From: Escherichia phage ECD7
Sequence record: NC_041936.1
Length of the DNA: 64,000 bases
Direction: 5' to 3' (one strand)
Shown here: positions 21,290-35,594 of the stretch, in pieces
Numbering within the stretch: position 1 is the first letter of the stretch
Layout: each line of letters starts with the position of its first letter
The notes under the pieces: model-generated
What the model was told of the DNA's origin: nothing
The model's input: only the letters and a program-made list of their open reading frames with translations
The model's database searches: none
Position numbers and translations under genes: made by a program

Positions 21290-21874
21290 ATGGCATATTA
21301 TTATCTATATCAAATAACAAATAATTTAAATGGGATGGTCTATGTTGGTATGAGAACGTCCAAAAAACCAATAGAAAAGGATTCTTATTGGGGGAGCGGA
21401 AAACGAATTAAAAGAGCAATAAAAAAGTATGGAATAGAGAACTTCACAAAAACTATTCTTTCCACACACAACACGTTAGAAGAACTAGCTTTAGCAGAAA
21501 AAAAGATAGTGACTAAGGAATTTGTAGAAAGAGAAGATACATATAATATTGCTCTGGGTGGAGTGAATAGAGGTTCTTTGTGGGATGACATGGACGAAGA
21601 AACAAAAAATGAAGCAAGAAGAAAAATATCTGAAAAAGCATCCAGTCGAAAAAGAGAATCTCACTCAGACGAGACTAAAAATAAAATGAGTCAATCGGCA
21701 AAAAATAGAAAGAGAGATTGGGAAAATTTTAAAGGCGCAAGAAAAATTATGGCAGAAGGTGTTCTATACCTAACCACTCAAGAATGTTGTAGAAAGTATG
21801 GGATATCAGCCGCTTCTATGAGGAAACGAGTAAAGTCAACCGCAGAAAAATGGAAGGAGTTTTATTATGTTTGA
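21290..21874 (+). CDS. GIY-YIG homing endonuclease (Seg-like)
   Basis: N-terminal [17 protein letters not shown] (GIY...YIG), NUMOD3-like [12 protein letters not shown], basic C-terminus; inserted between genes 13 and 14; AT-rich. Confidence 0.8.
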
Positions 21875-22619
21875 CTCTACATTATTTGCCAGATTGGAGT
21901 CACAGAAGGATTATGAGAACACTAGACAAACAGAAATTCTCAATCCTTATGTGAATTTCAATTCACATACAAATACACAAACTCTAGCCGATATTATGGT
22001 TGCCGAGTCTATACAAATGCGCGGCGTCGAGATGTACTACATACCGAGAGAATTTGTTAAACCTGATATGATATTTGGGGAGGACGTACAAAGCAAATTC
22101 ACTAAGGCGTGGAAGTTTGCAGCGTACATAAATTCTTTCGATGGGTATGAGGGTGCTGGCAATTTCTTTCAATCTTTCGGTTATACCGCTAATGATGAAT
22201 TAACCATAACCATAAATCCAAATTTATTCAAACATCAAGTAGACAACCAAGAGCCTAAATCCGGCGATTTGTTTTACATTCCTATGAGCAACGATTTATT
22301 CGAAATCTCATACGTCGAGCCATATCAGCCGTTTTTTCAGGCTGGCAAAAATGCCATGCGTAAAATTATTGCAGAGAAATTCGTGTATAGCGGCGAGGAA
22401 TTGCGACCAGAATTACAACGCAATGATGGAATTAATGTTGATGAGTTTGCGGATCTGGATCTTGCACCGATCACTAATCTGGACGGGTTAACAGATATCA
22501 ACTTAGATCAGTACAAAGAAGATAAGCAATTCAGAAGCGAAGGACAAGATTTTATTGATCCGTTTGATCCTATTAATGCAAGGGTTCACCTTTCGCCGAT
22601 TTTTGATAAATACTCATAA
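21867..22619 (+). CDS. 14: neck protein gp14
   Basis: 250 aa, synteny. Confidence 0.85.
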
Positions 22620-23479: not shown

Positions 23480-26790
<3,311 letters not shown>

Positions 26791-29451: not shown

Positions 29452-31017
29452 ATGTTTAGTAGATTAAAAATGCTTGCGCGTTGGGCTGATTTTGACAACG
29501 ACAAATACGAAGAACAAATTAAAGATAAAGCAGAGTCTATCGCCGCACCTAAAAACAATGATGGTGCTACGGAAGTAGAAATTAATGATAATTTACCTGC
29601 TAGCGCGTGGAACTCTCTTACCCAGCAATTTTACAGCACCGACCAGAAAATCAGCACAACTAAGCAATTAGTTAACACATATCGCGGTTTGATGAATAAC
29701 CATGAAGTCGAAAACGCTGTACAAAATATCGTTAACGATGCGATTGTATTTGAAGAAGGTCATGAAGTTGTTTCATTAAATCTTGAGGCGACTGGCTTTA
29801 GTGAATCTGTAAAAGAGCGCATTCATGAAGAATTTAAAGATCTTTTAAACACTATCCAGTTTGATAGGCGCGGTCAGGATATGTTCCGTCGCTGGTATGT
29901 CGATTCGCGTATTTTCTTCCATAAAATAATCGGCAAAAATCCAAAAGATGGTATCGTAGAATTACGCCAGCTTGACCCACGTAATCTTGAATATGTTCGC
30001 GAGATCATTACAGAAGACACACCGGAAGGTAAAATTTATAAAGCAACGAAAGAATATTTCATTTACACTGTAGGCAATAGTTCTTATTGCGCGGGTGGTC
30101 AAGTATTCTCTCCTAATAGTCGCGTTAAAATCCCGCGTAGTGCTATTACATACGCTCACAGCGGCTTAATGGATTGCGATGATAAATATATCATTGGTTA
30201 TTTGCATCGGGCTGTTAAGCCAGCAAACCAGCTTAAATTGTTGGAAGACGCAATGGTCGTTTATCGTATCACGCGTGCACCGGAACGCCGAGTGTTCTTT
30301 ATTGATACCGGAAACATGAACAACCGCAAGGCTGCACAGCACATGAACTCAGTGGCACAGTCTTTTAAAAACCGCGTTGTTTATGATGCATCGACTGGTA
30401 AACTTAAAAACCAGCAAGCAAATCTATCAATGACAGAGGACTACTGGTTACAGCGTCGAGATGGTAAAGCAATCACCGACGTTACTACTTTACCAGGTGC
30501 ATCCGGTATGAGTGATATCGATGATATTCGCTACTTTAACCGTAAATTGTATGAAGCGTTACGCGTTCCATTGTCACGCAGCAATCTCTCCGATGCTAAT
30601 ATGGTGATCGGTGGTGATGGTTCAGAAATTACTCGCGATGAGTTGGAATTTTCGAAATTCATTAGAACTCTGCAATCACAGTTTTCGGAAGTATTGCGCG
30701 ATCCTCTGAAATATAATCTGATTCTCAAAAATGTAATTACGGAAGATGATTGGGATCGTGAAATAAATAATATCAAGGTGGTTTTCCATCGGGACTCTTA
30801 CTATACAGAAGTTAAAGACGCGGAAATTTTAGAACGTCGAATCGGTCTAATCGAACGTATTACACCTTACATTGGTAAGTATTTCTCTAACCAGACAGTG
30901 ATGCGTGACATTCTGAAATATACCGATGACCAGATGGACACCGAGAAGAAACAGATCGAAGAAGAAGCGAACGATCCGCGCTTTAAACAAACTCCCGATG
31001 AAATAGAGGATTTTTAA
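29452..31017 (+). CDS. 20: portal vertex protein gp20
   Basis: 521 aa, synteny. Confidence 0.9.
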   Translation: MFSRLKMLARWADFDNDKYEEQIKDKAESIAAPKNNDGATEVEINDNLPASAWNSLTQQFYSTDQKISTTKQLVNTYRGLMNNHEVENAVQNIVNDAIVFEEGHEVVSLNLEATGFSESVKERIHEEFKDLLNTIQFDRRGQDMFRRWYVDSRIFFHKIIGKNPKDGIVELRQLDPRNLEYVREIITEDTPEGKIYKATKEYFIYTVGNSSYCAGGQVFSPNSRVKIPRSAITYAHSGLMDCDDKYIIGYLHRAVKPANQLKLLEDAMVVYRITRAPERRVFFIDTGNMNNRKAAQHMNSVAQSFKNRVVYDASTGKLKNQQANLSMTEDYWLQRRDGKAITDVTTLPGASGMSDIDDIRYFNRKLYEALRVPLSRSNLSDANMVIGGDGSEITRDELEFSKFIRTLQSQFSEVLRDPLKYNLILKNVITEDDWDREINNIKVVFHRDSYYTEVKDAEILERRIGLIERITPYIGKYFSNQTVMRDILKYTDDQMDTEKKQIEEEANDPRFKQTPDEIEDF

Positions 31018-31260
31018 ATGAAACAATTTATCGAAGCAATTAAAACTCGCGATCTAACGCTGATCGAAAAAGAATTTGATAAGATCATGGAGGCTAAAAA
31101 AGCCAGATCATCGAATCCCAGCGTGTCGAAATCGCATCCAGTATCATGATCGAAGGTGAAGAAGAAAAAGACCGCGATGATGAAGAAGATATGGAAGATG
31201 AGGACGACGAAGACGAAGATCGCAAAGAAGATAAAAAAGACAAAGAAGACGACGAATAAT
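31018..31260 (+). CDS. 67: prohead core protein gp67, interrupted by a -1 frameshift at an A6 run (80 aa if corrected)
   Basis: N-terminal frame MKQFIEAIKTRDL...EAKK stops at 31147; acidic C-terminal frame ...IMIEGEEEKDRDDEED... runs 31098..31260; frames join at AAAAAA 31096..31101. Confidence 0.6.
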
Positions 31261-31271
31261 AGGAAGCCAAC

Positions 31272-31679
31272 ATGATTAAAGATTTTACTCCTAAAGCTGA
31301 CTTAGAAACTTTTCTGCCGGAAGCACAGGAAAAATTGGACATGTTGGCTATGTTTGAGTCAGAAGAACTATTGAAAATCGTTGAAGGTATCTCCGAGGAT
31401 GAGCCGGAACTGGCGGTAGCAATGCTGTCTATCATCGACGGAATTACTGTAAATGAAGCAATGGTTAAACATGTAAACGCACGCGGGGAAGTTGCACGTA
31501 AGAAAGATCGCAAAACCCGTGAGCGTAATGCTTACATGACTACTGGCCTAAGCAAAGCTAAACGCCGTCAAATTGCCCGTCGTGCTGCAAAAACCAAACG
31601 TGCAAATCCATCTATCGAACGTCATGCGGAACGTAAGCGCAAAAAAGCAATGCGTAAACGTAAGGCGTTAGGATTATAA
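31272..31679 (+). CDS. 68: prohead core protein gp68
   Basis: 135 aa, synteny. Confidence 0.8.
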   Translation: MIKDFTPKADLETFLPEAQEKLDMLAMFESEELLKIVEGISEDEPELAVAMLSIIDGITVNEAMVKHVNARGEVARKKDRKTRERNAYMTTGLSKAKRRQIARRAAKTKRANPSIERHAERKRKKAMRKRKALGL

Positions 31680-31690
31680 CAGGAAACAAC

Positions 31691-32386
31691 ATGGAAAAGA
31701 ACGAATTACTGATCGAACAATGGGGCGTTCCTTGTGCTCGCGGTAGTTCGTCATTGCTTGAATCATTTGATGATAAGGCTACAGGAAATCTCTATATTCA
31801 AGGGATTTTCCTGCAAGCCGAAACGGTAAACCGCAATAAACGCTGGTATCCTCGCAGTGTTCTAGAAAATGCGGTTACTAAATACATACATGAACAAGTT
31901 GAGACACATCAAGCTCTAGGCGAACTTAATCACCCAGCAAGAGCAATGCCAGATCCATCTAATGCTTGCATCATAATTGAAAAATTATGGTGGGAAGGTA
32001 ATAACGTGATGGGTAAAGCCCGTGTTATTGAAGGGGATAAAGGCGCAGGTGATAAACTTGCTGCACTGATTCGCGCTGGCTGGATTCCTGGCGTTTCATC
32101 CCGTGGATTGGGTCGTTTGAAAGACTCAGGTCGCGGATACAATATTGTACAGGAAGGTTTTGTGTTGACGGTTGGTGTTGATGTTGTATGGGGTCCGAGC
32201 GCACCAGATGCGTGGGTAACTCCGGTGGTTGAGTCAACGGATAGCGATTCTAGCGCGTCAGACGCACCAGAAAGCGATAAAACCGAAAAAGTGACTAACC
32301 CTACAGCCTCACAACAAAACATCGTAGAATCGAATAATAGCGCGTTTATGGCGCTCGCAGAAGCGTTATCTAAACGCTATAAATAA
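31691..32386 (+). CDS. 21: prohead core scaffold protein and protease gp21
   Basis: 231 aa, N-terminus LLIEQWGVP, synteny. Confidence 0.85.
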   Translation: MEKNELLIEQWGVPCARGSSSLLESFDDKATGNLYIQGIFLQAETVNRNKRWYPRSVLENAVTKYIHEQVETHQALGELNHPARAMPDPSNACIIIEKLWWEGNNVMGKARVIEGDKGAGDKLAALIRAGWIPGVSSRGLGRLKDSGRGYNIVQEGFVLTVGVDVVWGPSAPDAWVTPVVESTDSDSSASDAPESDKTEKVTNPTASQQNIVESNNSAFMALAEALSKRYK

Positions 32387-32417: not shown

Positions 32418-33212
32418 ATGCTTAAAGAAATGCTGCTCGAAGAAGCAAAACAGATCACCGTAGACGTTGCTCTCGATGACCTGTTTGAATCCGTCGAACT
32501 GTCGCCGGAAGTAAAAGAAAATTTTGGTACTATCTACGCTCAGGCGGTAAAAGCTAATGCTGTTGCACTGGCAGAAAGCCACATTGAAAAAATCGCCGCT
32601 AAAGCCGATGAACTGGTAGAATCAAAGGTCGAAGAAGCACGCACCGAGATTGAAACCAAACTGTACGAAGATGCAGATAAATTCCTGAATCACTTAGGCG
32701 CTAAATGGCTGGCGGAAAATAAAGAAGCCGTTACCCGTAATATTAAAGCGGATCTGTGCGAATCCCTGATTGGTTCTCTGAAAGATGTTTTCGTTACTCA
32801 CAATGTTGTAGTACCGGAAGAATCTGTAGACGTTGTTTCTGAACTTGACGAAGCACTCAAAGAAGAAAAAGAAAAAACCTCCGAACTCTTTGATGCCAAA
32901 CTGCAACTTGAAAGCGAAATTCGTGGCATGAAGCGCGAACAAGCGATCAATGAAAGCACTCGTGATCTTTCCGATACTCAGAAAGAAAAAGTAACCGCGC
33001 TGATTGAAGGTCTGGAATATAGCGAAACTTTCGATAAGAAATTAACTGCAATTGTCGAAATGGTTGCTAAGAAAGAAGACAAACCAGCGAAGATTGAAGA
33101 ATCACTAAATACTGATGCCGACAAGCTGAATGTTATTGCAGAAGCTGTCGAAGAATCAGAGAAAAAGGCAACTGTAGATTCCGGCGTATCCCGCTACCTG
33201 AATTTCATCTAA
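32418..33212 (+). CDS. 22: prohead core scaffold protein gp22
   Basis: 264 aa, acidic coiled-coil protein, synteny. Confidence 0.85.
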   Translation: MLKEMLLEEAKQITVDVALDDLFESVELSPEVKENFGTIYAQAVKANAVALAESHIEKIAAKADELVESKVEEARTEIETKLYEDADKFLNHLGAKWLAENKEAVTRNIKADLCESLIGSLKDVFVTHNVVVPEESVDVVSELDEALKEEKEKTSELFDAKLQLESEIRGMKREQAINESTRDLSDTQKEKVTALIEGLEYSETFDKKLTAIVEMVAKKEDKPAKIEESLNTDADKLNVIAEAVEESEKKATVDSGVSRYLNFI

Positions 33213-34858: not shown

Positions 34859-34943
34859 TATAAGCCATTCCTGAAAAACTCCGGTCGGGTGCAATACCCG
34901 ACTTATCATAAACCTTATGACAGTGTAAAGTGTTAATTCCAAA

Positions 34944-34972
34944 GGGAAGACTCGAAAGGGTCTTCCCTTTTT
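34944..34972 (+). terminator. rho-independent terminator after gene 23 (GAAA tetraloop)
   Basis: gggaagactc/gggtcttccc stem, GAAA loop, TTTTT. Confidence 0.7.
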
Positions 34973-34988
34973 GCGTATTATATCCCGT

Positions 34989-34996
34989 TATAAATA
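34989..34996 (+). promoter_or_regulatory. T4-type late promoter TATAAATA in 23-24 intergenic region
   Basis: Exact TATAAATA immediately after the gene 23 terminator. Confidence 0.5.
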
Positions 34997-35186
34997 GGGT
35001 TGCAAGCTATATTCTATTGGGAGCGAAAATAGATACACACAACAAAGACAGGAAGATGCAGAACATCGGGGGTCGCGAGCCTAAATCCGGTGGCTATGAT
35101 ATGTGTAATTGCTTTTGATGCTGGATTTATTAAAACACAACAAACAATTCCACCAATTTTCGTAGTAACTGCATGGCAAAGGACCA

Positions 35187-35324
35187 ATGAATGAAATGAG
35201 CGTTCATGTTGATATTGGGTCGGATAGATTTGGTAGATATACAGATCTGGTGTATGTCGACCTTGTTATGGCATTCCAGCGTGACGCTAGCGGTAATTTT
35301 TGGTTTTGGTACGCTGTTCCCTGA
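35187..35324 (+). CDS. hypothetical small protein (45 aa)
   Basis: ORF with AAAGGA SD-like sequence; below ORF-track size cutoff. Confidence 0.3.
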   Translation: MNEMSVHVDIGSDRFGRYTDLVYVDLVMAFQRDASGNFWFWYAVP

Positions 35325-35356
35325 ATTAACCCAAAATTCTCCATAAGGAGGAATGC

Positions 35357-35509
35357 ATGAGTAAGAAAGAAAACAGCTATGTTATGACTCGTAAGGAATA
35401 CAACGAATTGATGTTAGCATTAGCTTATGCAATTATTCGTTCTGATCATGCAATTAATCTGGTAAACAAAGTTAACCGTAGCGTTGATAATGTTTCTAGG
35501 AAGAAGTAA
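35357..35509 (+). CDS. hypothetical small protein (50 aa)
   Basis: ORF with strong AAGGAGG SD; below ORF-track size cutoff. Confidence 0.45.
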   Translation: MSKKENSYVMTRKEYNELMLALAYAIIRSDHAINLVNKVNRSVDNVSRKK

Positions 35510-35594
35510 GTTTATTTTGGAATCCTTCGGATTCCTTTTTCTTTTTTTGTATAAATATGATATATCCATTAAGGCAAATACAGGATTCATAAAC

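Follow-up and report, generated by a model that had tools for sequence, protein, structure and literature searches.

In bacteriophage T4, gene 67 was reportedly described as essential by Volker et al. in 1982, and what is known of this essentiality has T4, not Krischvirus, as its scope. The T4 product (gp67) is present in about 340 copies per prohead core and is absent from the listed core proteins that are dispensable for assembly (PMC9958956). The prohead protease of T4, gp21, cuts after an L/I-x-E motif (PMC9026906). The phage considered here, Escherichia phage ECD7 (KY683735.1), is a viable lytic phage that has been applied therapeutically at 4x10^10 pfu/mL (PMC7277081; PMC10223927). We analysed a stretch of 64,000 nucleotides of its genome (sequence record NC_041936.1; hereafter, the window). 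Compared with 57 RB49-like phages (genus Krischvirus, Straboviridae), identity in the region is 98-99.6%, and none of them matches it at 100%.

In the window, gene 67 is split into two reading frames, and this split is genuinely present in the sequence as given. The features of the locus are the following:

31018..31149, + strand: 5' fragment of gene 67, an open reading frame (ORF) of 43 aa, with ATG at 31018 and TGA stop at 31147-31149
31096..31101, + strand: run of six A (A6) forming the Lys27-Lys28 codons, the same in every relative and in frame there
31103..31104, + strand: CC where all relatives have CCC, the site of a one-base deletion that shifts the frame
31104..31259, + strand: 3' part of gene 67 in the -1 frame, from CAG (Gln30) through Glu80, plus TAA
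31143..31154, + strand: codons I-M-I-E of the -1 frame, which fit the L/I-x-E cleavage motif of gp21
31146..31149, + strand: ATGA overlap, in which the Met46 ATG of the -1 frame lies over the TGA of the 43-aa ORF, an accidental product of the frameshift

The 43-aa ORF was annotated by the depositors as 'prohead' of Escherichia phage ECD7 (ASJ80248.1 / YP_009602120.1). Its product, translated from the ATG at 31018, is MKQFIEAIKTRDLTLIEKEFDKIMEAKKARSSNPSVSKSHPVS; native gp67 accounts for residues 1-29, through Ala29 (GCC at 31102-31104), and residues 30-43 are out-of-frame junk (RSSNPSVSKSHPVS) terminating at the TGA. In the -1 frame, an open stretch begins at 31098 and ends with the TAA at 31257-31259; its translation is KSQIIESQRVEIASSIMIEGEEEKDRDDEEDMEDEDDEDEDRKEDKKDKEDDE. 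The -1 frame lacks an upstream start of its own because a TAA occurs in it at 31095-31097. The 3' part of gene 67 carried by this frame encodes QIIESQRVEIASSIMIE↓GEEEKD... (the arrow marks the putative cleavage point discussed below) plus the acidic tail, contains no stop codons and is near-identical to the relatives. A first-pass annotation of the same DNA, made from the letters alone, had described a gene 67 split in two, with an N-terminal frame stopping at 31147, an acidic C-terminus in the -1 frame without a start, AAAAAA at 31096..31101, and a continuous product of 80 aa after a single-base repair. All of this is borne out by direct reading of the sequence. Of the gene extent that it gave (31018-31260), the start stands and the end has to be moved to 31259, stop codon included.

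The position of the lesion was obtained from the comparison with relatives. In the alignment with E26, Phi1, JSE, and Whisky, all four phages read GCT AAA AAA GCC CAG ATC, while the window reads GCT AAA AAA GCC AGA TC. Thus, at the level of gene 67 codons, GCC CAG ATC of the relatives corresponds to GCC AGA TC, and the run that follows the A6 is contained in GCCCAG in the relatives and in GCCAG in the window. We extended the comparison to a census of run lengths in 21 fetched relative loci (GenBank phages; Logan, ENA, and NCBI contigs with an identical portal protein; one IMG/VR contig; and one metagenome contig). The A-run had a length of 6 and the C-run a length of 3 in 21/21 loci, against 6 and 2 in the window. 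Since the relatives have A6 and then C3, and the window A6 and then C2, what the window lacks is a C (at 31103-31104) and not an A, and the deleted position lies two bases 3' of the A6 run. Judging from these aligned sequences, A6 is the ancestral, in-frame state in all the relatives, and the lesion is the adjoining C3 to C2 deletion.

A lesion within the A-run, as proposed by the first-pass annotation, is ruled out by the alignment and by the census, A6 being found in all relatives. Indeed, the frames had been said to meet at the A6 run, and an indel of this homopolymer or a -1 slip on its Lys codons had been offered as the mechanism; the relatives keep the A6 unchanged and in frame, and the difference is at C3 versus C2. 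The two repairs also give different proteins: residues 29-30 of the truly repaired product are Ala-Gln (KKAQII), whereas Ser-Gln (KKSQII) would result from adding an A or from slippage at the Lys codons. More generally, a homopolymer beside a frame break need not be the site of the break, and here only the comparison with relatives placed the lesion in the CCC.

With the C restored, the product is a protein of 80 aa (...MEAKKAQIIESQRVEIASSIMIEGEEE...). It matched Pfam PF17634 GP67 with 44.9 bits (cut-off 27) over positions 1-80 of 80, and PHROG 1064 'prohead' over 1-80 of 81, so the earlier identification of the gene as gene 67 is upheld by both families. The 43-aa ORF as written gave no Pfam match, and PHROG 1064 'prohead' matched it over residues 1-30 only; the -1-frame part taken alone scored 22.1 bits against Pfam GP67, at profile positions 31-80 (cut-off 27). 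In a tblastn search with the repaired protein, run with a low-complexity filter that masked the acidic tail, the stretch across the junction (residues 1-45) was 100% identical in one frame in 41 records, and an identity of about 49%, still in one frame, was found in T4-like phages of Edwardsiella, Serratia, and Klebsiella. The length of gp67 varies within the genus from 74 to 81 aa, owing to in-frame codon indels in the acidic tail. A length of exactly 80 aa, as given in the first-pass annotation, is therefore rejected as a hallmark of the protein and is not diagnostic: it is that of one sub-group.

The head-gene cluster around gene 67 has the order 20 (portal) - 67 - 68 - 21 - 22 - 23, and the same order is annotated in the relatives. 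The coordinates of the neighbours in the window are:

29452..31017: portal (gene 20)
31272..31679: gp68
31691..32386: gp21 protease
32418..33212: gp22

On the basis of the motif, cleavage by gp21 at the putative site I-M-I-E↓G would release an acidic C-terminal peptide from the repaired protein.

The comparison with relatives also bears on the possibility that the frame break is used by the phage. In this explanation the deletion would be real, and full-length gp67 would be obtained through a -1 slip of tRNA-Lys on the A-run (from AAA at 31099-31101 to 31098-31100, followed by AGC) or through transcriptional slippage adding an A; the recoding product would read ...KKSQIIE.... We regard it as extremely improbable. 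The A6 run is immediately 5' of the lesion, a -1 shift at that point restores the frame to 80 aa, and the tRNA-Lys of E. coli is slippery on A-runs, which counts in favour of recoding. However, the zero-frame codons GCU AAA AAA GCC produce the heptamer U AAA AAA, which is not the canonical X XXY YYZ, and the A AAA AAG string is out of phase. A6 is too short for efficient transcriptional slippage, which counts against the second route. A GGAGG sequence is present at 31089-31093, only 2 nt 5' of the A-run and far closer than the spacing of 10-14 nt at which such sequences stimulate -1 shifts. The 99 nt after the run (31102-31200) fold at -19.1 kcal/mol, with a z-score of -0.85 against shuffles, which is not significant, and downstream RNA structure as a frameshift stimulator is rejected on this value.

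Furthermore, there is no selection for a shift site, because all relatives hold the same A6 in one continuous frame. This is also the outcome of a check set beforehand, according to which relatives with the same A6 and both frames conserved would speak for programmed slippage: the A6 is kept, but in a single continuous frame, and the check goes against slippage. Finally, the need for about 340 copies per prohead, as determined for T4 (PMC9958956), makes gp67 a poor candidate for slippage at a percent level. Looking at gene 67 for the elements of a programmed -1 site, we found no slippery heptamer, no stimulatory structure, and no conserved two-frame arrangement; programmed frameshifting in this gene is very unlikely.

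Then, we evaluated if the deletion is shared by other genomes. An 86-nt query centred on the site was compared to the phage collection, where 57/57 related records span one base more than the window, and the extra base is also carried by 10/10 Logan, ENA, and NCBI contigs encoding the identical portal protein. Searched as an exact string of 22 or 29 nt, the deleted variant had 0 matches in IMG/VR and JGI metagenome contigs, and the intact variant had 1 match in IMG/VR and 1 in JGI metagenome contigs. A search of about 15 billion public proteins for the exact 43-aa product led to one contig only, which is the ECD7 record itself (164,706 bp). No other carrier of the gene 67 deletion was found in the phage collection, IMG/VR, the JGI metagenome contigs, or the identical-portal contigs, and its occurrence in another genome is ruled out across these collections and the roughly 15 billion proteins. 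In all the relatives examined (57 records and 12 contigs), gene 67 is a single continuous frame. Apart from the deletion, the gene 67 of the window has a single private substitution in 243 nt, GAC to GAA (Asp to Glu) in the tail; the frame downstream of the lesion shows no decay, with 0 stop codons and this one private substitution, as for a deletion that is either very recent or an artefact.

These data can be set against a second explanation, namely that the ECD7 stock used for sequencing truly has the C deletion, as a recent spontaneous frameshift mutation of gene 67, which we consider unlikely. In its favour, the deletion is present in the sequence as given, the 43-aa ORF was annotated in the deposited record, and a downstream frame that is still intact agrees with a very recent event. 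On the other hand, no other natural isolate or metagenomic contig has the deletion, ECD7 reaches high titres, and gene 67 of T4 is not among the dispensable core components (PMC9958956). The survival of such a mutant would imply that gp67 is dispensable, or partly so, in RB49-like phages, that the two pieces of the protein are still functional, or that a mutant subpopulation was sequenced. In the two-piece option, the 43-aa N-terminal fragment would be accompanied by an acidic peptide of 37 aa, whose translation would restart at the ATGA (31146-31149) that the frameshift created by chance. ATGA is a classic termination-reinitiation overlap, and the TGA lying over the Met46 ATG would permit coupled reinitiation of the acidic tail; the predicted reinitiated peptide, MIEGEEEKD..., starts four residues before the putative I-x-E↓G motif. 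Against this option, no Shine-Dalgarno sequence was found upstream of the ATG at 31146.

If the deletion is real, both halves of gp67 could thus conceivably be made, as far as the reading frames indicate. That the deletion is real and that heads are assembled with a two-piece gp67 derived from ATGA reinitiation, or with enough full-length protein from a -1 slip of Lys-tRNA on the A6, seems to us very improbable; if true, either would be a freshly arisen, unselected rescue of a frameshift in a structural gene. A real deletion would also be informative on the dispensability of gp67 outside T4, and nothing in the analysis supports that.

Further evidence on the origin of the deletion comes from the rest of the window. 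We compared it to five relatives (kvi, Phi1, GEC-3S, FL15, and RB49) over about 37 kb of shared sequence. Five private 1-nt indels, each isolated, were found in the window: one is an insertion and four are deletions. Conserved late structural genes are hit twice, gene 14 at 22578 and gene 67 at 31103. The indels outside gene 67 are:

22577..22578, + strand: private one-base deletion, GG to G, in gene 14 (neck protein, Pfam T4_neck-protein; 21867..22619)
35007, intergenic: private indel CC to C (GCC to GC), between genes 23 and 24
40480, intergenic: private 1-nt indel between hoc and inh, where a small ORF has its ribosome-binding region
42875, intergenic: private insertion of T just 5' of uvsW.1

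The gene 14 deletion (ATGGCA to ATGCA at about 22578) is uncompensated: in place of the conserved C-terminal 9 aa, GKGSPFADF, the protein ends in 13 out-of-frame aa and has 250 aa instead of 246. The extra G is present at this site in 56/56 relatives, and the 250-aa form of gp14 occurs only in the ECD7 record (ASJ80241.1). Besides gene 14 and gene 67, the scan against the five relatives revealed no further broken genes in the window. Among the relatives themselves, the private 1-nt indels of kvi, Phi1, and GEC-3S number 1-2 per genome and are intergenic in every case; the private indels of FL15 and RB49, not each mapped to a gene, are mostly clustered in divergent segments, which are the short tail fibre and fibritin for FL15 and the inh region for RB49.

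For the hypothesis of a real mutation, the change in gene 14 is confined to the last 9 residues and could be tolerated; against it, the presence of this other private frameshift in the same record suggests a technical cause. In addition, three private deletions of the window, at 22578, 31103, and 35007, are all GCC to GC on one strand or the other, a shared context which looks systematic and suggests a technical cause.

Taken together with the viability of the phage, the comparative data indicate that the split of gene 67 is most likely a base-calling or assembly error in the ECD7 record, and we hold this explanation with good confidence. The indel has the characteristics of an artefact: it is private to one record, it falls in a mononucleotide run, it is uncompensated, the downstream frame is undecayed, and other such lesions occur in the record. 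Against a record error, it is long homopolymers, more than a run such as C3 or G2, that typically give rise to errors in a consensus. The papers citing KY683735 give no sequencing method for ECD7. A homopolymer sequencing error had been one of the three options listed by the first-pass annotation; among them, sequencing error is the best supported, though at the C run and not at the A6.

According to this explanation, the deposited sequence would lack one C of the CCC run at 31103-31104, and gene 67 would appear split for this reason. The real ECD7, an RB49-like Krischvirus, would carry GCC CAG and make a normal 80-aa gp67; as in T4, this protein would become part of the prohead core and be broken down by the gp21 protease. 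The A6 nearby would be an ordinary pair of Lys codons, with no role in the frame break.

The value of the result is mainly curatorial: in the GenBank/RefSeq records of a therapeutic phage (KY683735 / YP_009602120.1), the 'prohead' protein is cut short at 43 aa and the C-terminus of gp14 is altered, and the ECD7 annotations of gene 67 and gene 14 probably need correction.

Other features of the window were observed outside gene 67. A gene for a 194-aa GIY-YIG homing endonuclease of the Seg type (Pfam SegE_GIY-YIG, with an I-TevI DNA-binding domain) is located at 21290..21874, between genes 13 and 14, and has an 8-nt overlap with the gene 14 start; kvi and Phi1 have this gene too (annotated segC), and RB49, GEC-3S, and FL15 lack it. 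The large terminase gene 17 (23974..26790) encodes 938 aa, versus about 607, and its product matches Pfam Terminase_6N, Terminase_6C, and LAGLIDADG_3. The insert, of about 331 aa with LAGLIDADG motifs, breaks the Walker A motif (SRQLGK/ALDV...IPTHN/TTAV) and, from its sequence, looks like an intein. It occurs also in kvi and FL15, and is absent in Phi1, GEC-3S, and RB49 (alignment gap at 24465-25456). For Krischvirus genomes, the intergenic region between genes 23 and 24 (34860..35560) is a hot spot of indels: run lengths differ by 1-4 nt at many places, Phi1 shows a 21-nt difference, and the small ORFs of the region are inconsistently annotated between records.

Compared to known systems, the locus shares with programmed -1 frameshifting, such as that of E. 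coli dnaX (A AAA AAG) and of IS element transposases, only an A-run near the frame change. Unlike those sites, the ECD7 heptamer is in the wrong phase, without structure or two conserved frames, and the change of frame comes from a private deletion. The resemblance to gp67 of T4 (pip, the prohead core protein and internal-peptide precursor) is much broader: the repaired ECD7 product is a full-length match to GP67 and PHROG 1064, its gene lies within the T4 gene order 20-67-68-21-22-23, and the N-terminal half of the protein is helical, its tail is highly acidic, and an I-x-E motif is present. Unlike T4 gp67 and every other member examined, the gene of the window is broken by a 1-nt deletion, and its annotated ORF holds only residues 1-29. 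With respect to the gp67 of Krischvirus, the window differs in having C2 instead of C3 at 31103-31104 and GAC to GAA (Asp to Glu) in the tail. It has the same A6 as these phages (RB49, Phi1, JSE, GEC-3S, kvi, E26, and others) and 99-100% identity to them on both sides of the lesion, and the repaired length of 80 aa is shared with the gp67 of E26, JSE, Whisky, GEC-3S, FL15, and MIZ6.
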